Assembly: GCA_964538235.1 (NCBI GenBank)
Contig: CAZIFJ010000001.1
Coordinates: 31,348 to 95,347, forward strand
DNA: 64,000 bases
Direction: 5' to 3'
DNA from: Candidatus Woesearchaeota archaeon
Lineage (GTDB): Archaea > Nanobdellota > Nanobdellia > Pacearchaeales > GW2011-AR1
In this document: piece after piece, positions 13,947 through 57,402 of the stretch
How the letters are laid out: each line of letters opens with the position of its first letter
How positions within the stretch are numbered: the stretch's first letter is position 1
The notes under the pieces: model-generated
The model's input: the letters and a program-made list of their open reading frames with translations, nothing else
What the model was told of the DNA's origin: nothing
The model's database searches: none
Made by a program: the position numbers and the translations under genes

Positions 13947-14537
13947 TTATTTTTTATTAATAATCTCATCATAGCTTCTCAACCAATTTCCAAATAAAAA
14001 CTTTCTAATTATTTCTAAGAAATTTCCTCCATCGCTCTTTGGTCTTGAGATCCAATTATATAAAACCATTAAAAATAAAATTAAAGAAATAATGAATACA
14101 ACTGGAGCTAAAAATATAATCTGCTCTCCATATGTTTCAAGAGAGTTTCTGTCCAAAATAAACCAAAAAAGATAAACATACATTAAAAATATAAGTATCA
14201 AAATTATTTCTGCAAGCCATTCAGTTCTGAAAAAAGGCAATCTTCCTATTTCATTTTTTAAATCAGGCCCCTTTATTCCATTATCAAATATTTTATACAT
14301 TAAACTTTTTTTCTGTCCCAAAGATTCTATCATAAGAATACAATAGAATAAAACAAAAAGTCCCAAAATCGACATAATAAAATACATTGGTCCCAGATTG
14401 GATTTAGAAGGCCATACCTTAAATAAAATCCATAAAGAAAAAGCAACTCCTACTGAAAAAACTGTCCAAATAAGAAAGTTACAATTTTCTGCCGAATCTC
14501 TGATTTTTTCATATTTCAACATTATTTCTTTATTCAT
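13947..14537 (-). CDS. Four-TM membrane protein, translationally coupled downstream of the RM gene
   Basis: Its start overlaps the RM stop by 4 bp. There are multiple hydrophobic helices. Confidence 0.5.
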   Translation of the reverse strand: MNKEIMLKYEKIRDSAENCNFLIWTVFSVGVAFSLWILFKVWPSKSNLGPMYFIMSILGLFVLFYCILMIESLGQKKSLMYKIFDNGIKGPDLKNEIGRLPFFRTEWLAEIILILIFLMYVYLFWFILDRNSLETYGEQIIFLAPVVFIISLILFLMVLYNWISRPKSDGGNFLEIIRKFLFGNWLRSYDEIINKK

Positions 14538-17503
14538 TTCAAACTCTCCTCAACAATTTTAATCTCTTCATCATTTAACCCATATAACTTATACACTTCT
14601 TCATCAATTTCATAATCAATATTTTTTATCTGTTGCTCTAATCTTTCTTTTTCGTTCCCAGTTGGATTTGTTTCGTGAAGTTGTTTTTGAAGCGAGAGCA
14701 TTTTATCAACTAAAGAAACTATTTTTTGTTCTTGTGATTTTTTCGGGAGACAGATTGGAAATTTCTCAATGAATCTTTTTGCATAAGAATAGTATCCTCC
14801 CCTAAATCTCGTGCTAATGTTTTTTAAATAAAATTCTAAAGTTTTGGAATTAAGTAATCCAAGAAGCAGTTTATATTTTTCTTTAAATTCTTCTTTCAAA
14901 ATTATTCCATAACCTCCAGCATTTCCACCCCCGACAAAATAATATTCTCCATTTTCATCCAACACAAATTTGTTTGAATTAGAAAGAACTTGCGTCATAA
15001 TCTTTTTCTTCTTAAATTTATCAATGTTTTGCGTTCTACCAAACTTATACCAATTTTTATCTTCGTTAAATCTGTTTTCTTCTCTCGATTTAAGTTCTTT
15101 CTCATAATCTTTCAAGTAATGATAAAAATTTGGATATTTTGATTTTATAATATCTAATTGAATTAAACTGGCTTTATCTTGGGATAGATCATAAGGATAA
15201 AGAACAGAATATCCTTCCCAATTTACAGACCATTTTCTTATTTCTTTTCCCTTAAGTAACTTTTTAATAATGCTTTTTTCAATTTTATATTCTTTATCCT
15301 TCAGATTATTTTTTACAATAAAATTATCTCTTTCTTCTTTAATTATTTTAACAAAATAATATCTATCTGCTCCAGTAATCATTCCCTGAAAAATTGCTTC
15401 AGCGATATTATTTAATCTCAAATCTATTTTGTCAAATTTTTGAAATATTTGAGAGCTATTTCCATCTGAAAAACTCCAAGTTAAATCTGAAACAGGTATT
15501 TTCTGCTCAAAACAAATTAAATTATCTTTGTTTAAAATTCCTTTATTTAACTTCATTAAATTTTTAGGAGTACAATAAAAAAATCGTGTATTATCTTCTT
15601 TATCCAAGAACAACAAGCAAGTATATGTTGTTGCATTTTCAAAAATTTGGTAATCTTTAAAATCTACTATTTCTTTAATTGCCTTATTTTTAGATATATA
15701 ATTTCTTAGATTTTTTCCATAATCTGCACTAAAGAATTTATTAGGCAATATATAACCCAATCTCCCATTTTCTTTCAATATTTTGTGACCCCTTTCTACA
15801 AATAAAATATAAATGTCATAATTCTTTTCTGGAGACTCATACATTTTATTAAAATAATCAACATCTTTTTTATTTAATGTTTGTATTCTAACATAAGGAG
15901 GATTCCCAATCACAACATCAAAACCTCCATTTCTAAAAACATCTGGAAATTGTGCGTGCCAATTAAACGCTTTGTCGCCTGCGATTTTGCTGTCGTCAAT
16001 TAAAGAATTTCCATTTTTTATATTATCTCGTAAGTTAGGTAGAAGGCGTTTATGAGTGTCTGGTGTTTCTTCTTCTAATATTTTCAATAATAAATTAAGC
16101 TGTGCTAACTCAACAGCTTTCTCATCTAAATCAACTCCATAAATACAATTTGACATAATAGATGCTTTTTGCCCCAAAGTAAGTCTATCTTTATAGAATT
16201 GGAATTGCGTGCTTTTTGCTTTCTCACCGCTTTTCAATTTTTGCTCAATTGTATTGCATAATTCTTGAAAAGCGCTCATAAGAAAACTCCCGCTTCCGCA
16301 AGCAGGGTCAACAATATTTACTTCTAAAATTTCATCAATTGTTTTATTTTTAATATATTCTCCTACTGTGTTCTTAACAATATAATCTACAATATAAGAA
16401 GGAGTATAATAAATTCCCATCTTTTTTCTCTTCCCAGTTTCAGATTCTAATTTAACTCTTTTCTCAGTGCTCTGAAGAATTGTTCCAAGATATTGTTCAT
16501 AGATGGTGCCCAATAAATCGCCAGGAATTTCATCAAACATATATCTTTCTTGAAAATCTTTTTTTCCAAAATACAAAATTCTAATAACTTCTTGAAGAGT
16601 ATTATCGTCAAAAAAGATATTTTTCTCATCTTCTAAAATACTTTTAGCGAATAATTTTGAATTATATTGTTTGTCAAAAATCAAAAATTGCTCTTCTAAA
16701 ATATCCCATATTCTCTTATGGATTCTCCCTTCTCTAAAATCTTTTACAATGCCTAAAAGAAAGTTTTTGTTTTCTAAACCTCTATCTTCAACAGAACGCA
16801 TAAAAATTAATCTATCTATTAAAATTTGAACAGCTTCGTCTATTTGTTCCTGCGATAAATATGCTCTTAATTTTTTTATGTCCTTTGAAAGCAATTCTCT
16901 AATATATAATAAATCTTCTAAAATACTTTCATCAATCGGCTTTGAAGCTTTCTCGTCTTTTTTAGAAAGTAATTCATAAATTTTTCCGTTTTCAAAACTT
17001 TCTTTTGATAACAACCAAAGCTTATCAAAATTATCTAAAAATTGCTCAAAAACCAATCTAAAATAACTTTCTCCAAGTTTTAATAAATTTTTGTCTATAT
17101 TTTTAATGTTAGTTAATGCATGGTATACTCTAATTTCTTTAAAATTAATTAAAACTGCAAATTTAATTTTTCTGTGATAAGCATAAGAAACCGCTTGTCT
17201 TCCTTCATCTTCGCTTAAACGAACAGAGGTTTTCTTAGCTTCAATAACTAATACTTCTTCGTTTCCAATTTTTAAAATATAATCTGCTCTTCCTTTCAAA
17301 ATACGAGTTTCTTTTTCAATGTCTTGCCTTTCCCACCCTAAAAGTTCAAACAATGGCTCAACATAATTCCACTTTACCCACTCTTCATTTTGGCTGTCAA
17401 TATAATCTTTATTTTTACTAGCTTGAGAAAACTGCTCAATTAATTCCTTCAACTTCTTCCTTGCTTGTTCTTTTGTCACCATATATTTCATAAAATAATT
17501 CAT
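14534..17503 (-). CDS. Type IIG restriction-modification enzyme (N-terminal PD-(D/E)xK nuclease, gamma-class N6-adenine MTase, C-terminal TRD)
   Basis: 989 aa. It has GRADYIL...VIEAKK (nuclease), VDPACGSGSFL (SAM motif I) and VIGNPPY (motif IV). Confidence 0.85.
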   Translation of the reverse strand: MNYFMKYMVTKEQARKKLKELIEQFSQASKNKDYIDSQNEEWVKWNYVEPLFELLGWERQDIEKETRILKGRADYILKIGNEEVLVIEAKKTSVRLSEDEGRQAVSYAYHRKIKFAVLINFKEIRVYHALTNIKNIDKNLLKLGESYFRLVFEQFLDNFDKLWLLSKESFENGKIYELLSKKDEKASKPIDESILEDLLYIRELLSKDIKKLRAYLSQEQIDEAVQILIDRLIFMRSVEDRGLENKNFLLGIVKDFREGRIHKRIWDILEEQFLIFDKQYNSKLFAKSILEDEKNIFFDDNTLQEVIRILYFGKKDFQERYMFDEIPGDLLGTIYEQYLGTILQSTEKRVKLESETGKRKKMGIYYTPSYIVDYIVKNTVGEYIKNKTIDEILEVNIVDPACGSGSFLMSAFQELCNTIEQKLKSGEKAKSTQFQFYKDRLTLGQKASIMSNCIYGVDLDEKAVELAQLNLLLKILEEETPDTHKRLLPNLRDNIKNGNSLIDDSKIAGDKAFNWHAQFPDVFRNGGFDVVIGNPPYVRIQTLNKKDVDYFNKMYESPEKNYDIYILFVERGHKILKENGRLGYILPNKFFSADYGKNLRNYISKNKAIKEIVDFKDYQIFENATTYTCLLFLDKEDNTRFFYCTPKNLMKLNKGILNKDNLICFEQKIPVSDLTWSFSDGNSSQIFQKFDKIDLRLNNIAEAIFQGMITGADRYYFVKIIKEERDNFIVKNNLKDKEYKIEKSIIKKLLKGKEIRKWSVNWEGYSVLYPYDLSQDKASLIQLDIIKSKYPNFYHYLKDYEKELKSREENRFNEDKNWYKFGRTQNIDKFKKKKIMTQVLSNSNKFVLDENGEYYFVGGGNAGGYGIILKEEFKEKYKLLLGLLNSKTLEFYLKNISTRFRGGYYSYAKRFIEKFPICLPKKSQEQKIVSLVDKMLSLQKQLHETNPTGNEKERLEQQIKNIDYEIDEEVYKLYGLNDEEIKIVEESLK

Positions 17504-17540
17504 ATTTATAGATTTGTCTTATTGATTAAACTTTCTTAAT

Positions 17541-17652
17541 GTCACGAACGTTAAAACCTCGCCTTTTAAGGCGAGGCGTTCGTGAGCATCCAAAAAACAA
17601 GCACCGAACAAACCACGGCTTTTAAGTCGTGGTGGTGCATTGTTTTTTTGAT
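17541..17652 (+). repeat. GC-rich composite hairpin element, copy 1 (hairpin A + spacer + hairpin B + T7)
   Basis: Hairpin A is GTCACGAACG-TTAAAA-CCTCGCC-TTTTAA-GGCGAGG-CGTTCGTGAGC, then ATCCAAAAAACAA, then hairpin B GCACC-GAACAAA-CCACGGC-TTTTAA-GTCGTGG-T-GGTGC, then ATTGTTTTTTTGAT. It is repeated at 24950 and 56796. Confidence 0.75.
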
Positions 17653-17689
17653 ACAAACAATTTATAAATTTATTAAATCAATAAATTAA

Positions 17690-18646: not shown

Positions 18647-18680
18647 TTAAGTTTTTAAAATGCAAATTCTTATCTATAAA

Positions 18681-19118
18681 ATGAATGAAAGAGGAATATC
18701 TCCTGTTATAGCTACTGTGCTTTTAGTTTCAATGGCAGTTGTCTTAGCTTTAATAGTTTTGTTTTGGGCAAGAGGTTTTATCTCCGAAGAAATTCAAAAA
18801 AGAGGAGAGCCAATACAAAATTCTTGCGAAGAAATAGATTTTGTAGCAGAAATTTCAGATTTTAATTTAAAAGTTATAAATAAAGGAAATGTTGCAATTT
18901 ATGGAATAGAAGTAAAAAAGAAAGACTTTGGTTCTATTTCAAATTTAGATAATCAAGATAAACAAATTCCGCCAGGAGAAACATCTGAAGAAATTTCTAT
19001 CACAGGATTATCATCTGGAGACAATGTTATTGTTGTTCCTAAAATTCTTGGAGAAAAAGATGATAAAAAAATTTCATTCACTTGCGATATTGAATTTGGA
19101 TATCCAATAAAAGTATAA
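18681..19118 (+). CDS. Archaeal type IV pilin (class III signal peptide)
   Basis: MNERGISPVIATVLLVSMAVVLALIV matches the archaeal pilin N-terminal consensus. The ORF track starts 21 nt upstream. Confidence 0.7.
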   Translation: MNERGISPVIATVLLVSMAVVLALIVLFWARGFISEEIQKRGEPIQNSCEEIDFVAEISDFNLKVINKGNVAIYGIEVKKKDFGSISNLDNQDKQIPPGETSEEISITGLSSGDNVIVVPKILGEKDDKKISFTCDIEFGYPIKV

Positions 19119-19119
19119 A

Positions 19120-19668
19120 ATGAAAATTAAAAAAAAAGGAGTTTCAGAGATTATTGCAACAGTTGTAATTCTATTTGTAACAGTTGCCACAGTTTCAATT
19201 TTATCAGTATTTATAATTCCATTTGTAAAAAATAAATTAAACTCAAGCACAGAATGTATCTCTTATAAAAATTACTTCACATTTGACGAATCTTTTAATT
19301 ATAATTGTAATTCCAGAAATTTATACGCTTTTTCAATAAAGGCCCAGACAACAACACAAAATATTTCCTCAAATATTAAAGGTTTTGATTTAATATTAAA
19401 AGCCGAAGGTTCATCAAAAAAAATTTCTATAATTAATAATGCCGATTCATCTTGTTCAGAAAATGGAATTAAAATTCTCGGAAAATCTTGTCCATCCCTA
19501 CTAAAAGTTCCTGCTGAAGGCGAAACACAAACATTTGTTTACAACAAATCTTCAGCAGAAAAAGATTTTACTTTGGTTGAAGTTTATCCTTATTTAAATT
19601 CAGGGAAATCTTGCGAAAAATCAGATGAAATAAAAATAACTTTATGTAAGGATGTATCAATAAGTTAA
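19120..19668 (+). CDS. Archaeal type IV pilin (class III signal peptide)
   Basis: MKIKKKGVSEIIATVVILFVTVATV. Confidence 0.7.
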   Translation: MKIKKKGVSEIIATVVILFVTVATVSILSVFIIPFVKNKLNSSTECISYKNYFTFDESFNYNCNSRNLYAFSIKAQTTTQNISSNIKGFDLILKAEGSSKKISIINNADSSCSENGIKILGKSCPSLLKVPAEGETQTFVYNKSSAEKDFTLVEVYPYLNSGKSCEKSDEIKITLCKDVSIS

Positions 19669-20186
19669 TGGGGAAAAAAGCACAGATTTGGATTGAGACA
19701 GCATTATACACCTTAATTGGAATTGTGTTAATAGGTCTAGTTCTCGGGTTTGTAAGCCCAAAAATACAAGAGTCAAAAGATAGAATTTTATTAGATCAAA
19801 CAATGCTTTCTCTAAATAATTTAAATAAGAACATAGATATAACTTCAAACAACGTAAGAGTTTTTCCAGTTCAAATAAAAAAAGGAGAGTTATTCATAGA
19901 TTCTAAAGAAGATAAAATAACTTTCAAGCTCGACAATATTCTCAAAGCTCCAACAGAAGAAGGATATACAATAGAAAATGGAATAGTAAAAGTTCTTTCA
20001 ACAAAAGGCAAAAAATATTACTCAGTAAATCTTACTTTAGATTATAAAGCCATTTTTGATATAAAGGTAAATAACAGAGAAGAACTTTTGAGATTAAATT
20101 CTGCTCCAGCGCCATATAAATTATCTATCTCAAATTTAGGAAAAATAGACAAACTCAATGTCATAGACATAAAAGAAATTTCATAG
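19668..20186 (+). CDS. Pilin-like/minor pilin protein with an N-terminal TM helix
   Basis: MGKKAQIWIETALYTLIGIVLIGLVLGF. It is translationally coupled to the preceding pilin. Confidence 0.55.
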   Translation: MGKKAQIWIETALYTLIGIVLIGLVLGFVSPKIQESKDRILLDQTMLSLNNLNKNIDITSNNVRVFPVQIKKGELFIDSKEDKITFKLDNILKAPTEEGYTIENGIVKVLSTKGKKYYSVNLTLDYKAIFDIKVNNREELLRLNSAPAPYKLSISNLGKIDKLNVIDIKEIS

Positions 20187-20225
20187 TTTGATAAGTTTTA
20201 AATATAACTCTAAACTTTTTTATTA

Positions 20226-21761
20226 ATGGTATTTTCAATAAACCTTCACCCTGTAATTCCAGCTCTTCCAAAAATAAAAGATAAAAAATTAGTTAATGTT
20301 AGATATATGTTGATTCCACCTTATGCTTCCGCACATATTTATTGGAATAAAGAAATAAGCGAATTAATTTATGAAATTGAAGAACCTTTATTGCAAGAAA
20401 ACGAAAAACTTCTTTTAGATAAATTAGAAGAAGCAATGCTCGAAATTGTTAATATAAATGTAGTTATAGAAAACACAGTAGAAGCAACAATCAATTACAT
20501 TGACAAAACTGTGAAATTATTAATAGACGAATTAAATTTATCAATTTCATTTGAAACTTATCAAAAAATATTTTATTATTTATTTAGAGATTTTGTCGGC
20601 TTTAATGAGGTTGACCCCCTATTGAAAGATTATTTTATTGAAGATATTGAATGCAATGGAGTAAATACCCCAGTTTATATTGTACATAGAATTTATAGAA
20701 ATCTTAAAACGAATTTAATTTACAAAGATGGTGATAAGTTGGCGAGTTTTATTGAAAAATTAGCTCAGCGAGCAGGAAGATATGTTTCTTATGCCCAGCC
20801 ACTGCTAGACGGAACTCTTCCAGATGGCAGCAGAATAAATGCAACTTACACAAAAGACGTCACTTCAAGGGGCCCGACATTTACGATAAGAAAATTCACG
20901 CAAGTTCCTTGGACCCCGACACAGCTAATAGCATTTAATACTTTAAGTCCTGAAATGCTCGCTTATTGTTGGCTTTTAATTCAATATAAATCAAGTATTT
21001 TAGTTGCTGGCGGAACAGCTTCCGGAAAAACAACTTTATTAAATGCATTAGCATTTTTTATTCCTCCCGAAGCAAGAGTCGTAAGCATTGAAGATACAAG
21101 AGAATTAAACCTTCCAAGAGAGAACTGGCTTCCGGCCGTTGCAAGAACTTCTATCGGTATAGGAAAAGTTGGAGAAGTTGATTTATTCGCAATTTTAAAA
21201 AGTTCTTTTAGACAAAATCCAGATTATTTAATCGTTGGAGAAGTTAGAGGAAAAGAAGCTTTTGTTTTATTTCAGGGAATGGCCTCAGGGCACGCCTCAC
21301 TAAGCACAATGCACGCAGATTCAGTTGATACTTTAATTAGAAGATTACAAACTCCTCCAATAAATTTATCTCCAACATTAATCAATACTTTAGATTGTGT
21401 GGTGATAGCAACTCACGCGGTTATTAAATCTCAAGAAACAAGAAGGATAAGAGAAATAGTAGAAATAGTAAACATAAACAGAGACGGCTCTGCTTTAATT
21501 AATACTCCATTTAGATGGGACCCAAGAACAGACCAATTTTTTTCCAAGAAACAGAGCAAGTCGTTTGAGAAAATTTCGATAAGGACAGGGATATCTTTAG
21601 AGAAATTAAGACTCGAGTTTCTTGCACGCACAAGACTTTTATATGCTCTCTTCAAAAAGAAAATTTTTGATTTTGATGAAATTCAAAGAATAATAAACGA
21701 GTATTATAAAAATCCAACACAAGTTCTTAATAGATATGATATTATCGACGTAGTTCAATGA
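20226..21761 (+). CDS. Type II/IV secretion-family ATPase (archaeal FlaI/TadA-like pilus assembly ATPase)
   Basis: Walker A VAGGTASGKTT, with Asp box, Walker B and His box (ATHA). 511 aa. Confidence 0.85.
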   Translation: MVFSINLHPVIPALPKIKDKKLVNVRYMLIPPYASAHIYWNKEISELIYEIEEPLLQENEKLLLDKLEEAMLEIVNINVVIENTVEATINYIDKTVKLLIDELNLSISFETYQKIFYYLFRDFVGFNEVDPLLKDYFIEDIECNGVNTPVYIVHRIYRNLKTNLIYKDGDKLASFIEKLAQRAGRYVSYAQPLLDGTLPDGSRINATYTKDVTSRGPTFTIRKFTQVPWTPTQLIAFNTLSPEMLAYCWLLIQYKSSILVAGGTASGKTTLLNALAFFIPPEARVVSIEDTRELNLPRENWLPAVARTSIGIGKVGEVDLFAILKSSFRQNPDYLIVGEVRGKEAFVLFQGMASGHASLSTMHADSVDTLIRRLQTPPINLSPTLINTLDCVVIATHAVIKSQETRRIREIVEIVNINRDGSALINTPFRWDPRTDQFFSKKQSKSFEKISIRTGISLEKLRLEFLARTRLLYALFKKKIFDFDEIQRIINEYYKNPTQVLNRYDIIDVVQ

Positions 21762-21793
21762 AAGATATTTAAAGAATAAAAATTATTTTATTA

Positions 21794-21955
21794 ATGGACA
21801 AAGCTCAAATAACTGCTCTTGCGCAACTTCTCACAAGCATGAAAGATTCAATTTATAGATTAGAAAAAGCAATAGAAAAAAATAGTCTTGAGGAAGAATT
21901 AGCAGTTAAAAAAGAAATTTTAAGTTTTCAAAAAGAAGTGGAAAAAATGTTATGA
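21794..21955 (+). CDS. Small ORF (53 aa) between the ATPase and platform genes
   Basis: MDKAQITALAQLLTSMKDSIYRLEKAIEKNSLEELAVKKEILSFQKEVEKML. Its stop overlaps the start of the next gene. Confidence 0.3.
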   Translation: MDKAQITALAQLLTSMKDSIYRLEKAIEKNSLEEELAVKKEILSFQKEVEKML

Positions 21956-23253
21956 TAGAACAATTAAAAAACAACATACAGACAGAAATTAATATTTTAA
22001 GAGAAATATCAAATTTTAGCAGACTTTATGAAATATATAAAGAAAAAGAAAAGTATCTTATTTTATCTGCTATAGATGCATTAAAAAAAAGTATAAAAAT
22101 AATTAATAATTCAATTCCAGCATTATTAAGTAATACTTCTTCAACCAAAAAATTATCTACAAGTAAAAATATTAAAACTTTAGAAAAAGTAGGATTTCAT
22201 TCAGACAACACTAATTTACTAGTTACTTTAAACTCAAAAGATAAAGAAGTTTTCTTAAAGGAATTGAACATAGGAAGTTCATTAATAAAAAAATTAAAAA
22301 AAATTAAATCAGAAAATAAGCCTGATTCGGCAGAAACTTTCGAGGTCTCAAGAGGTTATCTTAAAGTTTCTAATTTAATGTTTAGAAAGTTAGCATATTC
22401 TTTAATAAAGAAAGGTTATTTTAGAGGGTTGTCAAATGAAATTCAAAAATCAAATCTAAATATTTTATTTGAAACTTATGTCTCAACAATTATTCTAACC
22501 ACTTTTATCGGCTTTATTTTTTCAATTTTTCTTTTAATATTTCTATTATTTTTTCAAATAAGTTTTAGCCCACCATATATAGAATCTTTCTCTGGAGAAA
22601 TTTTCAAAAGATTTTTTTCTCTGCTCTGGATTCCCATAGCTATTCCTTTCGTAGTTTTATTTTTAGTTTATTACTATCCTATTTCAGAAAAAGAAACTTT
22701 AGAAAGAAAAATTAATCAAGAACTTCCATTTGCAGTTATCCATATGAGCTCGATTTCTGGCTCAGGAATAGAGCCCACGGAAATTTTCAAAATTATAGGA
22801 TTAAGTAGAGAATATCCTGCTTTAAGAAAAGAAATAAGAAAAGTTCTTAATCAAGTAAATTTATATGGATACGACCTAGTCACTGCTTTAAACAATACTT
22901 CAAAAATAACTCCAAGCGTTTCTTTAAGCGAATTATTTTCAGGATTATCAACTACAATTAATTCAGGTGGAAATCTTTCAGATTTTTTTCAAAAAAGAGC
23001 AGAAACTCTTTTGCATAATTATCGTCTCGAAAGAGATAAATTCACAAAAATCGCAGAAACTTTTATGGATATTTACATCAGTGTTGTTTTAGCAACACCG
23101 ATGATTTTAATTCTTCTTTTAGTTATAATAAATGTTGCAGGAATTTCTATTGGTTTTTCTACAATTCAATTAACATTAATTACGATTTTGATAATTACTT
23201 TAATAAATATTATATTCTTAGGAGTGTTGCATGTAAAGCAGCCAGCATATTAA
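21952..23253 (+). CDS. Pilus platform membrane protein, part 1 (FlaJ/TadB-like, T2SS-F domain)
   Basis: A cytoplasmic N-domain followed by multiple TM helices, adjacent to the ATPase. Confidence 0.65.
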   Translation: MIEQLKNNIQTEINILREISNFSRLYEIYKEKEKYLILSAIDALKKSIKIINNSIPALLSNTSSTKKLSTSKNIKTLEKVGFHSDNTNLLVTLNSKDKEVFLKELNIGSSLIKKLKKIKSENKPDSAETFEVSRGYLKVSNLMFRKLAYSLIKKGYFRGLSNEIQKSNLNILFETYVSTIILTTFIGFIFSIFLLIFLLFFQISFSPPYIESFSGEIFKRFFSLLWIPIAIPFVVLFLVYYYPISEKETLERKINQELPFAVIHMSSISGSGIEPTEIFKIIGLSREYPALRKEIRKVLNQVNLYGYDLVTALNNTSKITPSVSLSELFSGLSTTINSGGNLSDFFQKRAETLLHNYRLERDKFTKIAETFMDIYISVVLATPMILILLLVIINVAGISIGFSTIQLTLITILIITLINIIFLGVLHVKQPAY

Positions 23254-23254
23254 A

Positions 23255-24112
23255 ATGAAATTCAAAAAAGTTCATGGGATAGGTTTGTTTGTTGGAGCTA
23301 TTCTGTTAGTATTAGATATAATTTATTTTACAGAAGAAAAAATATTTAATTTTATTCTAGGAATTTCTATTTTTATTTCTATTTTGCCTTTTATTATAGA
23401 AATAAATTTAGAAAATAAAAAAGAAAAGGAAATAAGTACAATGTTTTTAGAATTTTCTAGAAGCCTATCCGAAAGTGTTACAACAGGAACACCAATAAGT
23501 AAAAGTATAATAAACATGAAAAAGAAAAATTTTGGGGTTTTAACTCCACATATAGAAAAATTAGCAAATCAGATAGAAATAGGGATTCCTGTTCATCGCG
23601 CTTTACAAAATTTTGCATACGAAGTTGACAGCCCAACAATTAAGAGAGCAGTCGCCTTAATCAGAGAAGCAGAAAGGGCTGGGGGGGAAATAGATTATAT
23701 TCTTTCTTCTGTCGCAACTTCTATTTCAGATGTACAAAAACTTAAAGAAGAAAGAAAGGCTATGATTTATAATTTGGTTGTTCAGGGATATATAATATTT
23801 TTCATTTTTATTGGAATTATGTTAGTAATGGAATTTAAGATTCTTCCTTTAGTCTCTGACTTAAATGGTTTTGGAGGATTTGATTTATCTTCCATTCCAT
23901 CTACAACAGAAGAAAATTCCTCGAGCAATTCGAATTTAACACCCCAAGATTTAGCAACACCATTTTTATTATTATTATTATCTCAGGGTATTTTAGCAGG
24001 GTTGACCATAGGAAAATTAGCAGAGGGGAGCATAATTTCGGGTATCAAACACTCTTTTATATTATCAATGACTGCTTTTCTAGTATCAACCGGCGTTAGA
24101 GCGTTTTTCTAA
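23255..24112 (+). CDS. Pilus platform membrane protein, part 2 (TadC-like, T2SS-F domain)
   Basis: A TM, then a cytoplasmic helical domain, then TMs. It is 1 bp after part 1, so the platform is split as in bacterial Tad systems. Confidence 0.6.
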   Translation: MKFKKVHGIGLFVGAILLVLDIIYFTEEKIFNFILGISIFISILPFIIEINLENKKEKEISTMFLEFSRSLSESVTTGTPISKSIINMKKKNFGVLTPHIEKLANQIEIGIPVHRALQNFAYEVDSPTIKRAVALIREAERAGGEIDYILSSVATSISDVQKLKEERKAMIYNLVVQGYIIFFIFIGIMLVMEFKILPLVSDLNGFGGFDLSSIPSTTEENSSSNSNLTPQDLATPFLLLLLSQGILAGLTIGKLAEGSIISGIKHSFILSMTAFLVSTGVRAFF

Positions 24113-24885
24113 TTTTTAATTATATAAAAAACTTCATTTTCTCTTTTTTCAATTTTAAAATAATATCCCAATCTGTTTAAAATTTTTTCAAACCATATTC
24201 TTTCTGGTTTTTTCATAGGTTTTCCAGAAATTTTTTTTGTGGGAAAGCTGACTATAAAATATTTACATTTTATATTTTTAAGTAAATTTTCCGCAATTTT
24301 ATGTCCTTTTTCTTCTATAATGTCTAACAATTTTAAAAGTAAACACAAATCTACTTCAGGCAAATCTAAACCGCCCTTTCTTATATCATAAAAGAAAGTT
24401 TCTCCTTCTATTTTATTTTTCTCAAAAAATTTTTTCATAATTTTAAGTTCATCTTCTTTAATATCTGAAGCATAATATTTAATTCCTCTTTTTGCAACTG
24501 CAATCGGATTCAATCCGCATCCTAAATCAAGAATAGAGCTCGGATCAAGCCCATAAATTATTTTTTTAACATCATCATAAATTTCAATTCTTTCTCTTGT
24601 TGATTTGTGAGTTTTCAGCAAATCATTTATTTTGTCTTTTTCAAGAAACTCATCTCGTTGTTTATTATTTCCTTGAAATCTTCCAGTATACTTTCTTAAT
24701 TCAGCTCTTATTTCTTTAATTATTATTTTTCTTTCTCTTTTTTTTAAATTATCTAAATAAATATTATTTTTTCTCAAATATTCATTAATTAGCTCATTTA
24801 TTAAAATTTCAGAAACTCCAGATATTTCCCTTTTTCTTTTAATTTCCTCAATAAGATTTTTCATATAATTTTTTTCTTCACTCAT
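24109..24885 (-). CDS. ArmA/Rmt (FmrO)-family 16S rRNA (guanine1405-N7) methyltransferase homologue
   Basis: LLKTHKSTRER, ILDLGCGLNPIAV, FIVSFPTKKISGKPMKK and WFEK match ArmA LLKIHSSTNER, ILDFGCGFNPLAL, FVISFPIKSLSGKEKGM and WFES as I recall them. 258 aa. Confidence 0.6.
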   Translation of the reverse strand: MSEEKNYMKNLIEEIKRKREISGVSEILINELINEYLRKNNIYLDNLKKRERKIIIKEIRAELRKYTGRFQGNNKQRDEFLEKDKINDLLKTHKSTRERIEIYDDVKKIIYGLDPSSILDLGCGLNPIAVAKRGIKYYASDIKEDELKIMKKFFEKNKIEGETFFYDIRKGGLDLPEVDLCLLLKLLDIIEEKGHKIAENLLKNIKCKYFIVSFPTKKISGKPMKKPERIWFEKILNRLGYYFKIEKRENEVFYIIKN

Positions 24886-24949
24886 ATTCTAACAGAGTTT
24901 TTAATTATAAAAATTTGACGTATAGCAAAAGAATTAGATAATTCTTCAT

Positions 24950-25112
24950 GTCACGAACGTTCAAACCTCGCCTTTTAAGGCGAGGCGTTCGTGAGCACAG
25001 AAAATCTTTTAGATTTTCTGTTCAGAAAAGACTTACATCTTTTCTGCATCCAAAAAACAAGCGCCGAACAAACCACGGCTTTTAAGCCGTGGTGGCGCAT
25101 TGTTTTTTTGAT
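24950..25112 (+). repeat. GC-rich composite hairpin element, copy 2 (A + two extra AT hairpins + B + T7)
   Basis: It is the same as copy 1 but with a 50-nt insert, CAGAAAATCTTTTAGATTTTCTG/CAGAAAAGACTTACATCTTTTCTG, which is two more hairpins. The B stem is GCGCC/GGCGC, compensatory to copy 1's GCACC/GGTGC. Confidence 0.75.
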
Positions 25113-25176
25113 ATATAAAATATTTCTCTCTTTCGTATAGAGAAACTTATTTAAATTTCATTATACGATTTCCTAT

Positions 25177-25878
25177 ATGAAAAGAGGAGCAAGTCACGTT
25201 GAATTTATAATATCAAGCATTATGTTTATTAGTTTTGTAACTTTTATTTTATTTTTATTTAACATCCAAGAAAAATCCAACCCTGCAGAATTTTTATCAG
25301 AAAATATTTTCAATTCTTTAAAAGAAAATTCATCTGTCAATGTAGAGTATTATTATGTTTCTATAGATTTAACTGCAGTTAATAATAAACCATCAATTCA
25401 AGTTTCTTTAAACAGCATGCCAATAAATAATTTTGTCAGAGTAGAAAATTACTCTGGAGCAGTTTTACCATCAAAACTTGATGGTAATAATATAAAAATA
25501 GAACACTTAGATAATAATTTAATTATAATAATGCTTAGCGAAGATTTTCTTCCATTTAGTGGAAATGTAAATTCAGATTTTTCCAATTCCGGTTATTCAA
25601 TCATCTCTTCCAATTCAGAAAGAATTATTTCAGAAAAAAGAATTTTAAAAATAGAAGACTTATATTATTTAGATTACGTTTCTCTCAAAAAAAATTCATT
25701 CAAGCTCTTGGGTAATTTAGATTTCTTGTTCAAATTAGAATTTTTCCCTTCTAATTTTATAGAAGCAAAAATGAATATTCCTGAAGGGGTTGACATTTTT
25801 TCTCTTAATGAAAGAATTTTTGTTTTAAGATCCGATGGAACTAGAGCATCTGCTGATATGGAGGTAAAAGTATGGTAG
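25177..25878 (+). CDS. Class III signal peptide (pilin-like) protein
   Basis: MKRGASHVEFIISSIMFISFVTFILF. Confidence 0.6.
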   Translation: MKRGASHVEFIISSIMFISFVTFILFLFNIQEKSNPAEFLSENIFNSLKENSSVNVEYYYVSIDLTAVNNKPSIQVSLNSMPINNFVRVENYSGAVLPSKLDGNNIKIEHLDNNLIIIMLSEDFLPFSGNVNSDFSNSGYSIISSNSERIISEKRILKIEDLYYLDYVSLKKNSFKLLGNLDFLFKLEFFPSNFIEAKMNIPEGVDIFSLNERIFVLRSDGTRASADMEVKVW

Positions 25879-26306
25879 GAAAAAATGGCGTCTTGAGGGT
25901 ATTAGAAACCACAATAGCAATATTAATAATTTCCTCAGTAGTGATCTTTTTTTCAGTTAGAACACAAAATGAAAACGATTTACATTTAGATAAAATAGCA
26001 CCACCCTTACTAGAAGAAATATCAAAAAATACAAGTTTAAGAGATATTGTAATTTCTTCAAACCAAGAAAATAAAAAGAATAATGAAAAAATTATAATTG
26101 ATTTTATTTCTCCAAAGATAAAAATTGGAGGAATAAATTATACTGTTAAAATTTGCGAATTAAATGATATTTGTGTTATTGATACACCGATTGATTCTTT
26201 TGATGACATTTATGTTTCGGAAAGAGTAATTAGTGCAACACCTTTAGTTGGTTTTAATCCAAAGATAGTTAAAATTTTTCTCTGGCGCTCAAAGCCAAAA
26301 CCATAA
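25872..26306 (+). CDS. Pilin-like protein
   Basis: MVGKNGVLRVLETTIAILIISSVVIFF. It overlaps the previous gene. Confidence 0.5.
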   Translation: MVGKNGVLRVLETTIAILIISSVVIFFSVRTQNENDLHLDKIAPPLLEEISKNTSLRDIVISSNQENKKNNEKIIIDFISPKIKIGGINYTVKICELNDICVIDTPIDSFDDIYVSERVISATPLVGFNPKIVKIFLWRSKPKP

Positions 26307-26343
26307 ACACTAAATTTTTAAACAAAATTAGTTTAGCTTATTT

Positions 26344-28959
26344 ATGAAAAAAAGAGTTTTTTTGGTGTTTTTCTTATTTATTTTTTTATCAAATTTTTCT
26401 TCAGCAGATTTTATATATTTTAATAATTCTATTGAAAAAGTATATTCTTCTGGAGATAATGTTGCAGGTTTTTTTAATATAAGCTTTAAAGATGCAAAAG
26501 CAGATTCTTTATTGACTTCCAATTTTCCTGGAAATATTTCTCTTTTAGAATTTTTAGAAATTCAAGATCTAACTTTAAATGAAGATTATAATTGTAGTTT
26601 AAAAGATTGCTTAGATTCTTATTCTTCAACAAATACGATTTCTTCTTTAAGCGTAACTGGCGAGTCTATTTTAGGATTTAAATTGGAAGGTGAAGAAGTT
26701 CTTGTAAGGGATATTAAGCTGAAGATTGAAAGCGATTCTCCAAATTCTTGTTTAAATCCCCTCTCAATTAATATTCCTGAAAGTTTTCAAAAAATAACTA
26801 GTGATGTTTACACTCAAAATACTTGCTTTTCTAAAAACTATGGTTGTTTTTCTTCTTCAAATTCTTATCAAAATGTTACTATATCAAATACACAAATTTG
26901 CGAGAAATTAACTTTGCCTCCCGCTCCGGCATATAAATTAGGGGCGAAAATTACAAACAGCACAAAAGGTATTGCTACACTTTCAATGACTCTATATACA
27001 ACCCAAGGCTCGCTTTTAGAAAAATGCAATCTACCAAATCATATAGAGAAAACAGAAGAATTATCTTGTATAGTCAATCATCGCTCTTCAATTTCACAAG
27101 AGTATTTAGTTTGTGTTTTATCCAATATCCCATTTTCTTCAACAAGCCCAGATTATACAATTCGCTCTGAAACAAGCTCTCCTGTTTGTGGCTCAAACGA
27201 TTTAGGAGATACTTTCAAAAAAGATTATGAAATTTTTGCTCAATCAATGGAGTTCGGAAAAATCTCCATTCAAATTTTAGACTCTTCAAAATTTTTCTCT
27301 CCAGATAAATTATCTTCTATTTTTCAAGATTATCTTGAAGAAAAATATAATTCATTTTGTAAACCATTTTGCATAGTTCCTATTAAATTTTCTGGAAACC
27401 CTCAAAACTTGATTTTTTCTGATATTAACTTGGCATATTTATCTGATGGTGACGCAACATCAACAAACTCACTTTATACTACCTCAATACAAAAACCAAA
27501 AATAAATTCAAAACCTATCCAATTAGACTTATCTTTAATTAATTTTACAATTGACTCTCCAACAAAAAAAGAATTTATTTTATATTTAGACGATGAAATA
27601 ATATTCCAGCAAAAAATAAATATTTCAGATAGTTTTCAATTTGATATATCTCCTAAATTTGCTCTCCACGGCATAAACACGATATTTTCCATCAATTTAA
27701 ACAAAAATATTAGCAAAATTTCAGTGGATTTTGGAGATGGAGTTTCATCAGAATTTTTAACAAAAAATTTCTCTCATTCATATAAATCTCCAGGAAATTA
27801 TAAATTGATTGTTTCTGTAAAAGACTCACAAGGTTTAACTTCTATTAAAAAATTTAATATTTTTGTTGGAAATCCAAAAGAATCTGCATCAATAAAAATA
27901 GCAGACTTTGAATCAAAAATTTCAAATCTTACTCAAAAAATATTATCTTATCCTTCATGGATTCAAAATAATATAAAAAATACGATTGAATTAGAAGAAT
28001 TAAAATCTTCTATAAAAAAAATAAAAGATGATTTTAATTCTTCAGAATCAGATGAAGATTATATTTCTGTTGTTGAAGGTTTATTAAATCTATATATACC
28101 CTATTCCATATCAACAACTCAATCTGGAGAAATTCCTTTAATAGCAGGTTTAGATTCAATAAATTCAGATTACATAAAATCCATTTCTAATTTTGAAGGC
28201 GAAATTTCCGATGAATCTTTCAAGTCTTCAGTTTCTTCTTGGATTACAGAGAATTTTGATGCACAAATTTCTTTCCAAACAATTTCATCTTTTTCAGATT
28301 TAGAAATATCTCCATTATTAACTTCCTTTAAAATAGATTTAACAAAACTATCCTCTGATACAGAGATAGCATATTTAATTATTGATAGACCATTTGATTC
28401 CATAACTTTTTTAAAAGATTACGGCCAAAAATTAATTGAATCCGCAACTTATATTCCAATAAAATCTTCTTTATCCATAGAATTTTTAGCTGAAGATGGA
28501 GAAGACTTTTCAAGTCTTGGATTTTATCTCTCTCCCGACATTCAATTTTTAGAAATCTTTCCAGTAGAATCTGAAATAGAAGAGTTTGAAAAGAAATATC
28601 CAATCGGAAGAGTATCTATAATAATTTCTATAATTTTCTTTTCTTTTCTTGTAATTTATATAATTTTACAAGAATGGTACAAAAAGAGATACGAATCTTA
28701 TTTATTCAAAAGTGCTGAAGATATATATAATCTAATTAACTTCATTTCAAATGCAAGAAAATCTGGTTTAAATGATTCAGACATAAGGATAAAATTATCA
28801 AGAAACGGTTGGAATAATGAACAAATAACTTATGCTTTCAAAAGATTTGATGGAAAAAGAACAGGTATGTTTGAAATTCCTTTATTCAGATTTTTAGAAC
28901 AGAAAAAAATTAAATCAGAACTTGAGAAAAGAAATTTTGTTAGAGGAAAGATTTATTAA
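26344..28959 (+). CDS. Large surface protein (871 aa): signal peptide, ~750-aa ectodomain, single TM, ~110-aa cytoplasmic tail
   Basis: The N-terminal signal is MKKRVFLVFFLFIFLSNFSSA. There are many N-x-S/T sequons. The TM segment is VSIIISIIFFSFLVIYIIL and is followed by a basic tail. Confidence 0.6.
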   Translation: MKKRVFLVFFLFIFLSNFSSADFIYFNNSIEKVYSSGDNVAGFFNISFKDAKADSLLTSNFPGNISLLEFLEIQDLTLNEDYNCSLKDCLDSYSSTNTISSLSVTGESILGFKLEGEEVLVRDIKLKIESDSPNSCLNPLSINIPESFQKITSDVYTQNTCFSKNYGCFSSSNSYQNVTISNTQICEKLTLPPAPAYKLGAKITNSTKGIATLSMTLYTTQGSLLEKCNLPNHIEKTEELSCIVNHRSSISQEYLVCVLSNIPFSSTSPDYTIRSETSSPVCGSNDLGDTFKKDYEIFAQSMEFGKISIQILDSSKFFSPDKLSSIFQDYLEEKYNSFCKPFCIVPIKFSGNPQNLIFSDINLAYLSDGDATSTNSLYTTSIQKPKINSKPIQLDLSLINFTIDSPTKKEFILYLDDEIIFQQKINISDSFQFDISPKFALHGINTIFSINLNKNISKISVDFGDGVSSEFLTKNFSHSYKSPGNYKLIVSVKDSQGLTSIKKFNIFVGNPKESASIKIADFESKISNLTQKILSYPSWIQNNIKNTIELEELKSSIKKIKDDFNSSESDEDYISVVEGLLNLYIPYSISTTQSGEIPLIAGLDSINSDYIKSISNFEGEISDESFKSSVSSWITENFDAQISFQTISSFSDLEISPLLTSFKIDLTKLSSDTEIAYLIIDRPFDSITFLKDYGQKLIESATYIPIKSSLSIEFLAEDGEDFSSLGFYLSPDIQFLEIFPVESEIEEFEKKYPIGRVSIIISIIFFSFLVIYIILQEWYKKRYESYLFKSAEDIYNLINFISNARKSGLNDSDIRIKLSRNGWNNEQITYAFKRFDGKRTGMFEIPLFRFLEQKKIKSELEKRNFVRGKIY

Positions 28960-28980: not shown

Positions 28981-29619
28981 ATGCTTAAAATATTAAGAGA
29001 TTTTTCAAAGAGGATATTATATTCCATATTTAAGAAAAAAGAGAATATAAAAATTGGTTTATATGGCCCACCAAATTCTGGAAAAACTAGCTTAGCAAAC
29101 TTGATTTGTAAAGATTGGACTGGTGAAGAATTAGGAGCAGTTAGTAAAATTCCTCATGAAACAAGGCATGTTCAATTCAAGGAAAAAATAGAAATTAAAT
29201 ACAAGGGAAAAAGTTTGATAATGAAAATGATTGATACACCTGGAATTGCAACAAAAATAGATTATGAAGATTTTTTGAAATATGGTGTAAATAAAAAAGA
29301 AGCGAAAAAAAGAGCGCGAGAAGCTACTCAAGGAATTATAGAATCTATTCAATGGCTAGATGATATGAATGCAGTTATTGTTGTTTTAGATTCAACAGGA
29401 AATCCTTATTCTCAAGTTAATATTACAATAATCGGAAATTTAGTAGCGAGAAAAATTCCGGTTTTGATTGTCGCAAATAAAATCGATTTGAGAAAGTCAA
29501 GTGTTAAAAGAGTTGAAGCGGCATTTCCAGAATATGAGGTTGTTGGAATTTCTGCAAAAGAGGGAAAAAATCTAGACGAGTTTTATGAAGCCTTGTTTAG
29601 ATTGTCAAAGAAAATATGA
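28981..29619 (+). CDS. Small Ras-superfamily GTPase (archaeal predicted GTPase)
   Basis: G1 GPPNSGKTSL, G3 DTPG, G4 NKID. 212 aa. Confidence 0.75.
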   Translation: MLKILRDFSKRILYSIFKKKENIKIGLYGPPNSGKTSLANLICKDWTGEELGAVSKIPHETRHVQFKEKIEIKYKGKSLIMKMIDTPGIATKIDYEDFLKYGVNKKEAKKRAREATQGIIESIQWLDDMNAVIVVLDSTGNPYSQVNITIIGNLVARKIPVLIVANKIDLRKSSVKRVEAAFPEYEVVGISAKEGKNLDEFYEALFRLSKKI

Positions 29620-30026
29620 GTTTCAAAAATAAAAATACAAAAGAGAAAAAAATTCATGGACTTAGTTTACAAGTAATTCCATTTTCAGAAGTACAACAAT
29701 TATCTATTTCTGAAAGAGTAAAAAAAGTATTAAGTTTAGTTTTAAGCAATAAAGTTGTTATCTTACATGGGAGATTAAGAGCAGAAGAAGAGGCGAGATT
29801 AATTGAAGATACTATGGCCCTTGTAGGTAACTTAAAAAATTTTAAAGGAATAGAATTAGCAGTCATAGAGCCCGATATAAAAAATGAAAGTTTCTTTATA
29901 AAACTCAGACATGGAATAGCAAAAAGACTTGTCGGAGACAATAGTGCCTTGACAGTTATTGGTCCAGCTTCTATAATAAAAGACATAAAAAGAGATCCTA
30001 AGAAAATAGAGCTTTTATTAGGCTAA
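29616..30026 (+). CDS. Conserved small partner protein of the GTPase (possibly DUF2073-like or roadblock-like)
   Basis: Translationally coupled to the GTPase by a 4-bp overlap. 136 aa. Confidence 0.4.
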   Translation: MSFKNKNTKEKKIHGLSLQVIPFSEVQQLSISERVKKVLSLVLSNKVVILHGRLRAEEEARLIEDTMALVGNLKNFKGIELAVIEPDIKNESFFIKLRHGIAKRLVGDNSALTVIGPASIIKDIKRDPKKIELLLG

Positions 30027-46508: not shown

Positions 46509-46663
46509 AGCCTCTAAGGGGATTTGAACCCCCGACCCCGAGTTTTTTTGTCTGACAAAACCAAGGTTTTGTCAACGCCCGTAGAACTTCTTTCCACGGC
46601 GGCTTCAATTCTGAAGAAATTGAAGCTTACGAAACTCGTACTCTACCGCTGAGCTATAGAGGC
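46509..46663 (-). tRNA. tRNA-Thr (anticodon CGU) with a ~84-nt intron in the anticodon loop
   Basis: Reverse-complemented the sequence is GCCUCUA-UA-GCUC-AGCGGUA-GAGU-A-CGAGU-UUCGUA, then the intron, then A-ACUCG-GGGUC-GGGGG-UUCAAAU-CCCCU-UAGAGGC-U. The intron contains two hairpins. Confidence 0.75.
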
Positions 46664-56795: not shown

Positions 56796-56884
56796 GTCAA
56801 GGAACTTGACTCCTTGAGCATCCAAAAAACAAGCGCCGAACAAACCACGGCTTTTAAGCCGTGGTGGTGCATTGTTTTTTTGAT
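56796..56884 (+). repeat. GC-rich composite hairpin element, copy 3 (short A-variant hairpin + B + T7)
   Basis: GTCAAGGAACTTGACTCCTTGAGCA is an A-variant with the same GTCA..TGAGCA flanks. The B hairpin then has GCGCC/GGTGC, the G·U intermediate. It is in the same orientation as copies 1 and 2. Confidence 0.75.
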
Positions 56885-57402
56885 CTTTTTATTTCTCTCC
56901 AAATATTTTTAAAATCACTATAAACAGGAATTTCTTTTATTTTAAATAAATAAACATTTCCAAACCAAACACATATAACTAAAATCGTGCTTATAACATA
57001 CCAAAATACTTTATGTGTAATGTCAAAATATTCAAAGCCATTAATCAGCAAAATAGAAAAAATAATTATTCTAATTATATTAAGTAAGAAAAATCCCCCA
57101 ATAATAAATAATAAACTATTAATTCTTTTTCTAATTTTCATAGGTGTTGTCAAATTTAAAATTAACAATAAATAATATGCCGCCCCTGCAACACATGCCT
57201 CAACTATTTCAATTGAATAATCTTTGATAATTAATGTAACAGTTTCTTTTACAATTTCAACATTATAAAACAGCTCTAAAATAAAATAAGAAACATATAA
57301 AGTCAATGGCTCAAAAATTAAATAAATAAAATAAAGACTATTTATTCCTAAAATTAAAGCAAAAAGATATCTTAAAAAAATAAATAAAAATTTATTATTC
57401 AT
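56854..57402 (-). CDS. Polytopic membrane protein; last 9 codons read through the hairpin repeat
   Basis: 182 aa with about 5 TM helices. The C-terminal RSKKQCTTTA is encoded by the reverse complement of repeat copy 3. A weak exosortase/archaeosortase-like idea is not supported. Confidence 0.45.
   Translation of the reverse strand: MNNKFLFIFLRYLFALILGINSLYFIYLIFEPLTLYVSYFILELFYNVEIVKETVTLIIKDYSIEIVEACVAGAAYYLLLILNLTTPMKIRKRINSLLFIIGGFFLLNIIRIIIFSILLINGFEYFDITHKVFWYVISTILVICVWFGNVYLFKIKEIPVYSDFKNIWREIKRSKKQCTTTA

Follow-up and report, generated by a model that had tools for sequence, protein, structure and literature searches.

A vertically inherited Arm/FmrO-family methyltransferase gene in the pilus cluster of DPANN archaea, predicted to encode a native rRNA-modifying enzyme

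The 64,000 nt stretch of DNA analyzed here (hereafter, the window) comes from Candidatus Woesearchaeota archaeon (contig CAZIFJ010000001.1, positions 31,348 to 95,347) and contains, within a type IV pilus-like gene cluster, an open reading frame (ORF) with an ATG start codon that encodes an S-adenosylmethionine (SAM)-dependent methyltransferase of 258 amino acids (aa). In an earlier reading of the window from its letters alone (the sequence-only reading), this ORF had been likened to the enzymes that confer aminoglycoside resistance by methylating N7 of G1405 in 16S rRNA (m7G1405), and either horizontal acquisition or a native role in the modification of the decoding center had been proposed. 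The analyses described below show that the gene is old and vertically inherited in this group of DPANN archaea, and its product is probably a native methyltransferase of the m7G1405 type that acts on the small subunit (SSU) rRNA. The gene and the two domains of its product are the following:

24109..24885, minus strand: gene for an FmrO/Arm-family SAM-dependent methyltransferase, predicted to be of the SSU rRNA m7G1405 type (ORF, Pfam, NCBIfam, AlphaFold2, Foldseek)
24616..24885, minus strand: N-terminal helical domain, aa 1–90 (DSSP on the structural model, Foldseek, profile and MAFFT alignments to RmtB and RmtC)
24112..24615, minus strand: class I Rossmann catalytic domain, aa 91–258 (residue mapping onto RmtC, RmtB and ArmA; 119 archaeal homologues)

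The ORF and the three signature blocks by which it had been recognized were all found in the translation, namely LLKTHKSTRER at aa 89–99, ILDLGCGLNPIA at aa 118–129, and FIVSFPTKKISGK at aa 210–222. Among the Pfam families, FmrO (PF07091) came first with 66.9 bits (gathering score 27; E = 2.5e-18; profile positions 77–250 of 255), and the second family, TehB, stayed under its own threshold. A sequence search against the PDB returned, at E < 1e-8, only ArmA (3fzg, 1.3e-16), RmtB, RmtF, RmtC, and Sgm, with E-values from 1e-16 to 6e-9. A profile built from 28 archaeal homologues likewise matched RmtB, ArmA, RmtF, RmtC, and Sgm only (3e-27 to 1e-18) and carried the alignment with RmtB on into the N-terminal domain. 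The NCBIfam model NF000466 (Rmt_gen), the "Rmt family 16S rRNA (guanine(1405)-N(7))-methyltransferase" equivalog that is used for calling resistance genes, gave 123.6 bits, which is below its curated cut-off of 250, and the specific models for RmtB to RmtH gave 39–56 bits compared with cut-offs of 500–550. The methyltransferase belongs to the Arm/FmrO family in the evolutionary sense and lies outside the curated resistance-enzyme equivalog, so that the label "aminoglycoside-resistance-type" holds for homology but not beyond it.

The predicted structure agrees with this assignment. The family alignment was used to build an AlphaFold2 model, which reached a mean predicted local distance difference test (pLDDT) value of 92.4 and a predicted template modeling score of 0.88. 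In the N-terminal domain (pLDDT about 90), DSSP assigned helices to aa 2–15, 26–39, 49–67, 77–82, and 86–90; this domain holds the conserved basic residues K18, K53, K57, R60, and R64 as well as the aromatic F70. The catalytic domain contains H93-x-S95-T96-x-E98-R99, D120-x-G-C-G, D141, D167, K185, K217, S220-G221-K222, and M224. In a Foldseek search against the PDB, the top 16 chains were all m7G1405 methyltransferases. RmtB, Sgm, and RmtF aligned over about 258–274 columns with template modeling (TM) scores of 0.75–0.80, RmtB over 258 columns with a TMt of 0.80 and Sgm (3lcv/3lcu) with a TM score of 0.79 and an E-value of 2e-15. The first unrelated methyltransferase followed with 2.5e-8, compared with about 1e-15 for the m7G1405 family. 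The family assignment of the sequence-only reading therefore stands, because no unrelated Rossmann methyltransferase family preceded FmrO/Rmt in the hidden Markov model search and because the N-terminal helical domain typical of FmrO is present, both in the helices of the model and in the full-length Foldseek alignments.

The 30S-RmtC cryo-electron microscopy study (PMC10288597) identified the residues that are experimentally important in RmtC. Their counterparts were located in a MAFFT alignment of full-length RmtB, ArmA, and RmtC, taken from plasmid records, with 119 archaeal homologues. The conserved positions are given below, with the RmtC residue in brackets:

S95 (S107): SAM binding, 119 of 119 archaeal homologues
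R99 (R111): SAM binding, 119 of 119
D141 (D160): SAM binding, 118 of 119
K185 (K204): contact to N7, 118 of 119
F70 (Y60): stacking on the base and on SAM, F or Y in 119 of 119
K217 (K236): contact to G1405, K or R in 104 of 119
K222 (R241): contact to the U1495 phosphate, K or R in 114 of 119
M224 (M245): insertion beside A1408, 119 of 119
K53, K57, R60 (K43, K47, R50): N1 docking, 115, 115, and 119 of 119

The set S95, R99, D141, and D167 (compare R108, D156, and D182 of Sgm) was kept in 114–119 of the 119 homologues, and both the SAM-binding and the G1405-contacting residues were found to be conserved. In RmtC, M245 packs against C1407, A1408, C1409, A1492, and A1493 (PMC10288597).

Relatives of the gene are widespread in a group of related archaea. 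A search of 5.8 billion proteins yielded 190 relatives, the best 120 of which were full-length and 43–57% identical; the named proteins among these 120 came from Pacearchaeota, Nanoarchaeota, or an uncultured archaeon and were annotated as "hypothetical" or as generic methyltransferases. One scan of species representatives with a single peptide pattern detected a relative in at least 297 species-level genomes, and nearly all of the best 80 of these 297 genomes were labeled Pacearchaeota, Woesearchaeota, or Nanoarchaeota. An exhaustive profile search of 1.84 billion representatives clustered at 50% identity gave 402 matches at E ≤ 1e-30 and 1,690 matches at E ≤ 1e-3. The archaeal context that had been proposed for the gene is borne out by these names and, in addition, by archaeal-type pilins, an OapB homologue, and an archaeal CCA-adding enzyme. 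The identity to RmtB and ArmA was 31–34% over the catalytic domain. In a fast neighbor-joining tree, which was rough, unrooted, and included only four bacterial sequences, RmtB, ArmA, RmtC, and RmtF formed an exclusive bipartition against 140 archaeal representatives (76 of 100 bootstraps; mean identity about 27%). The composition was host-like: the GC content of the gene was 23% overall and 14% at third codon positions, at the low end of the local range (24–33% and 15–22%, respectively, for the neighboring genes).

The position of the gene is constant. It is flanked by the last platform gene and by the pilin-like genes of a type IV pilus-like cluster, antisense to both, and the convergent arrangement with pilus platform genes that had been described previously was confirmed by Pfam, which identified two T2SSF genes and a T2SSE ATPase. 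Conservation was analyzed in 80 fetched loci, for which the counts of neighbors are lower bounds because many contigs end inside the flank. The cluster and its most conserved genes are:

18660..24112, plus strand: type IV pilus-like cluster, part 1, with three pilin-like genes, a T2SSE ATPase, a small ORF, and two T2SSF platform genes (Pfam; order and orientation conserved in 37–73 of 80 loci)
20226..21761, plus strand: T2SSE ATPase (63 of 80 loci)
21952..23253, plus strand: platform gene (68 of 80)
23255..24112, plus strand: platform gene (73 of 80)
25177..28959, plus strand: second part of the type IV pilus-like cluster, transcribed divergently from the methyltransferase gene and encoding two small proteins whose N-termini resemble pilins, followed in this list by an 871 aa protein with weak PKD domains (translations; 42–59 of 80 loci, constant side and strand)
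25177..25878, plus strand: divergent gene (59 of 80)

Order and orientation showed no exception wherever a neighbor was detectable in the 80 loci. The stop codons of the methyltransferase gene and of the convergent T2SSF platform gene overlap by 4 nt (24109–24112), and the median for this 3′-end overlap was −7 nt in 61 loci; therefore, the transcripts must overlap antisense at their 3′ ends.

Such invariant placement could indicate that the methyltransferase works together with the pilus system, for instance by methylating pilins, all the more as it typically shares with the pilin-like genes a divergent spacer of 50 nt with a single central TATA-like box. We consider this very improbable. The conserved residues serve RNA docking and methylation of guanine N7, and the gene lies on the strand opposite to the pilus genes. 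In addition, two more distant archaeal members of the family (277 and 301 aa) were found in clearly archaeal contexts outside of pilus clusters, one of them next to another methyltransferase and a ribosomal-protein operon; in a second homology search, their named relatives again carried only Nanoarchaeota or Pacearchaeota labels. A functional link to the pilus is weakened by these distant members, and since they sit elsewhere, the linkage is regarded as lineage-specific synteny without a functional requirement. In the locus L084:6789-8834 (GCA_053533175.1) of a more distant archaeal lineage, the FmrO homologue directly follows a 400 aa MTS/PrmA-like methyltransferase on the same strand and is about 2.4 kb away from a ribosomal-protein operon (L3-L4-L23-L2-S19...), a translation-related context unlike that of the pilus.

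Right after the pilus cluster, a small MMR_HSR1-type GTPase, which was syntenic in 17 of the 80 loci, and the homologue of the origin-associated protein OapB are encoded at 28981–30026 on the plus strand. These two genes may be signs of a replication origin close by, although no clear switch was visible in the GC-skew profile.

The divergent spacer, with a median length of 50 nt in the related loci, comprises 291 nt in the window (24886–25176). The 50 nt spacers contain a conserved aTTTaTATA box at positions −29 to −21 relative to the ATG of the methyltransferase gene, which suggests that one central bidirectional TATA element drives both genes and that both are leaderless. Spacers of about 50 nt with a central, near-palindromic TATA box are seen, for example, in the loci L006, L013, L023, L026, L032, L040, and L048. 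In the window, the equivalent sequence (24886–24945) has been split by the insertion of a repeat, and each gene retains a TATA-like box of its own. The elements in this spacer and the other copies of the repeat in the window are:

24904..24913, minus strand: TATA-like box about 20–28 nt upstream of the methyltransferase ATG, a probable promoter of a leaderless mRNA (sequence)
24941..25115, plus strand: inserted dispersed repeat with four consecutive hairpins (covariance model 98.9 bits, covariation, folding z-score −11.5)
17533..17655, plus strand: second copy, between a type IIG restriction-modification gene and a thioredoxin-reductase-like gene (nhmmer E = 4.5e-24; covariance model 94.6 bits)
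56811..56887, plus strand: third copy, consisting of the core module and a short 5′ hairpin, between convergent genes (nhmmer E = 4.9e-17; covariance model 95.1 bits)

The repeat upstream of the methyltransferase gene is 175 nt long and forms near-perfect hairpins, and the folding z-score is the same on either strand. Its conserved core is a 3′ module of 77 nt. The lower stem of this core combines an A-run and a T-run with a GC clamp, the 5′ internal loop has CAAAC at its end, and the hairpin further comprises an upper stem of 7 bp and a TTTTAA loop. In full copies, another hairpin of similar kind precedes the core on its 5′ side, with AT-rich hairpins in between. In the core alignment, 96% of the cells were paired and 10 of 24 pairs showed compensatory changes, whereas none of 500 shuffles reached the observed values and controls with slid partners collapsed. 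The covariance model is strand-asymmetric, with 95–99 bits on one strand versus 30–40 bits on the other. Comparison with Rfam by E-value gave only noise (best E 0.24, 22 bits versus a gathering score of 70 bits), and no transposase partner was found among ten window ORFs of appropriate size. The repeat could be a miniature inverted-repeat transposable element, a repetitive extragenic palindromic element, an IS200-type end, or a small-RNA family of DPANN archaea. A handful of related loci contain copies elsewhere, some in the orientation of the methyltransferase gene and some in the opposite one:

L078:6806-6987 and L078:7479-7554
L080:700-776
L028:7927-8001
L047:12199-12383
L022:4606-4795

The contig L088 (ENA) has the same 291 nt spacer, and L089, a Logan contig (SRR8863434) from an independent assembly of the same organism, stops 92 nt before the start of the methyltransferase gene, inside the repeat. 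Such a break fits a multi-copy repeat in that genome. The second repeat copy in the window lies directly upstream of the gene at 14534–17503 on the minus strand, which encodes a 989 aa single-chain type IIG restriction-modification enzyme (Eco57I/MmeI-like methylase, TaqI_C specificity domain, HSDR_N) and is not conserved in the related loci.

The sequence-only reading had taken the hairpin element, described there as mobile-like, as a hint that the methyltransferase gene had been acquired, and the scenario of a bacterial resistance gene recently brought in by the adjacent element has the multi-copy repeat directly upstream of the gene in its favor, together with the notorious mobility of this family in bacteria, where 1,322 plasmid records match. 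It is nevertheless scarcely credible. The element is indeed a hairpin-rich dispersed repeat, with three copies in the window, but as the vehicle of the gene it is ruled out, given that most loci have the 50 nt spacer without the repeat and that copies occur elsewhere in either orientation. Because the related loci normally have a 50 nt spacer, the repeat is recognized as an insertion into the shared promoter region; it is a later, independent insertion unrelated to the origin of the methyltransferase gene. The gene itself is found in the same slot and orientation in up to 73 of the 80 related genomes, has a host-like composition, is only distantly related to RmtB and ArmA, and belongs to a separate clade. 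Synteny, composition, and phylogeny together rule out recent horizontal transfer, and recent acquisition is effectively excluded. Plasmid, transposon, or integron association, patchiness, and foreign composition, by which mobile resistance determinants are recognized, were not found for this gene.

These results directly support membership in the family, the fold, the conservation of the residues, the distribution throughout the lineage, and the fixed synteny. The alternative of a native decoding-center modification enzyme, which the sequence-only reading had also offered, is supported by the synteny, the distribution, and the conserved residues, and on this basis the protein is probably a native, vertically inherited SSU rRNA methyltransferase of the m7G1405 type in this DPANN lineage. 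We infer what the substrate is, which position is modified, and what role the enzyme has in the cell. The enzyme would place a constitutive m7G in the decoding center of Pacearchaeota/Woesearchaeota-type ribosomes, and resistance to 4,6-disubstituted deoxystreptamine aminoglycosides would come as a by-product rather than as the trait under selection.

Several findings weigh against this interpretation, and many of them favor its main rival, namely that an enzyme with the same fold and chemistry has been retargeted to another substrate, either N7 of a different guanine (in SSU or large subunit rRNA or in tRNA) or a pre-ribosomal particle, and that the changes in the docking surface reflect this retargeting. 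In RmtC, His54 and Tyr21 both touch nucleotide G1516 of helix 45; both residues are near-universal in the bacterial enzymes and each is essential in RmtC (PMC10288597). His54 aligns with Arg64, an arginine in 118 of the 119 archaeal sequences according to both the profile and the MAFFT alignments. Tyr21 aligns with I21, and the archaeal family has Leu, Phe, or Ile at this position, although this loop alignment, obtained with MAFFT only, is less certain; the same applies to the column of RmtC Lys20, which holds Glu, with an invariant K18 two residues upstream. The equivalent of Arg211 is not conserved among the archaeal homologues, the flipping loop that distorts helix 44 is two residues shorter, and the N2 subdomain is also shorter. 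The score lies far under the Rmt equivalog cut-off, and m7G1405 has not been reported for any archaeon; it is absent from the 16S modification map of H. volcanii. It is also absent from that of C. acetobutylicum, where a native precedent was sought. A 16S rRNA gene in which the target site could be checked was found neither in the 64 kb window nor in 87 fetched loci. Furthermore, Husain et al. (2010; PMC2896518) introduced NEQ545 of Nanoarchaeum equitans as "the first archaeal ortholog" in the Arm family, reported that it combines a conserved catalytic domain with a diverged helical N-terminal domain, and left its function open.

Retargeting is nonetheless unlikely in our assessment, since the residues that read helix 44 were kept (the equivalents of M245 in 119 and of R241, as K or R, in 114 of 119 homologues), as were the three N1 docking residues corresponding to K43, K47, and R50, and since the fold of the whole protein, including N1, superposes on RmtB and Sgm. 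Because His54 and Tyr21 both contact G1516 of helix 45 in RmtC, the archaeal family appears to have re-tuned one docking contact, while the catalytic and the helix-44-reading machinery were kept.

Another possibility is that the enzyme does generate m7G1405, but was selected as an intrinsic protection against aminoglycosides of neighboring microbes. Resistance to aminoglycosides is conferred by every characterized member of the family, and in one relative the FmrO domain is joined to an acetyltransferase domain of the GNAT type, a fold shared by the AAC aminoglycoside acetyltransferases. This fusion (P0310, a JGI metagenome protein of 403 aa; PF00583/PF13508/PF13673) is the lone case among the relatives and could represent either an acetylase/methylase pairing for rRNA or a ribosomal protein or a hint of an aminoglycoside-related role. 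Intrinsic resistance is quite improbable, however. The gene is present throughout the lineage and keeps a fixed chromosomal slot over 40–57% protein divergence, like a core rather than an accessory gene, and the hosts are presumed to be fermentative anaerobes, whereas aminoglycoside uptake requires respiration, an argument made for Clostridium and for bacteria of the candidate phyla radiation (CPR) that would extend to DPANN archaea. A 2026 preprint describes similar 16S methyltransferase-like genes in CPR bacteria as unlikely resistance determinants, with fermenters taking up aminoglycosides poorly.

Comparison with characterized systems shows both the likeness and the distance of the archaeal enzyme. 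With RmtB, ArmA, RmtC, and RmtF, the acquired m7G1405 enzymes of Gram-negative pathogens, it shares the FmrO family, the combination of a helical 30S-docking domain and a Rossmann domain (TM 0.75–0.80 for RmtB and RmtF), the SAM-binding residues, the catalytic Lys, the aromatic stacking residue, and the Met and basic residue of the flipping loop. It differs from them in its overall identity of about 27%, the replacement of His54 by Arg and of Tyr21 by Leu or Phe, the shorter flipping loop, an N2 region shorter than that of RmtC, and a chromosomal, syntenic, lineage-wide gene that is not borne by a plasmid or transposon. The self-resistance enzymes of the Sgm/Kgm/GrmA type from aminoglycoside-producing actinomycetes have in common with it the family, the fold, and a chromosomal, "intrinsic" gene; however, the genes of the producers serve self-protection and are located in or near antibiotic biosynthesis clusters, whereas the archaeal gene resides inside a pilus cluster without biosynthetic context. 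The aminoglycoside-resistance enzymes NpmA and KamB, which methylate N1 of A1408, dock on the same surface of the mature 30S subunit, formed by helices 24, 27, 44, and 45, and flip a base of helix 44, but belong to another family with another target atom and nucleotide, and did not appear in any of our searches. NEQ545, judged from its published description, is a DPANN member of the Arm family and the same kind of protein, so that archaeal Arm homologues were already published before this analysis. It was reported to lack one N-terminal helix, whereas the model of the protein described here has the full set. Moreover, the tree of 2010, with 32 sequences, placed NEQ545 as derived from the pathogen group (PMC2896518), whereas here the bacterial enzymes were separated from the 140 archaeal representatives. 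Full-text searches found nothing beyond that report on NEQ545, on FmrO in archaea, or on such enzymes in DPANN archaea or Pacearchaeota. Judged by the searchable literature, the following observations are new: how broad the clade is, the fixed slot in the pilus cluster, the near-perfect catalytic conservation, and the His54Arg and Tyr21Leu signature.

One further feature of the window is unrelated to the methyltransferase. An Rfam tRNA match of 155 nt was found at 46509–46663 on the minus strand (50.5 bits, full model), which at this length must carry a long intron or insertion. ARAGORN detected no tRNA anywhere in the 64 kb window.

Thus far, m7G1405 has been known as a resistance mark only, either acquired by pathogens or used by antibiotic producers for self-protection, and its presence in E. 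coli is costly for fitness and disturbs native methylations. Tentatively, and with slightly less than an even chance of being right, we propose that the whole Pacearchaeota/Woesearchaeota-type DPANN lineage constitutively carries m7G at the equivalent of G1405 as a housekeeping mark, which would be installed by an ancient Arm/FmrO clade with a re-tuned helix 45 contact (Arg in place of His54). If so, this would be the first native, non-resistance use of m7G1405 and its first occurrence in archaea, and the clinical Rmt and ArmA enzymes would have a deep relative in the environment, the archaeal clade, which may be their ancestral pool. The 402 clusters at 50% identity, with their natural His54Arg and Tyr21Leu variants, would be a large and divergent resource for resistance research, for studying 30S recognition and for inhibitor design. 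In annotation, neither "hypothetical" nor "aminoglycoside resistance" is an apt name for such genes. If the proposal holds, this modification can belong to normal ribosome biology, and it would be a new entry in the sparse map of archaeal rRNA modifications.

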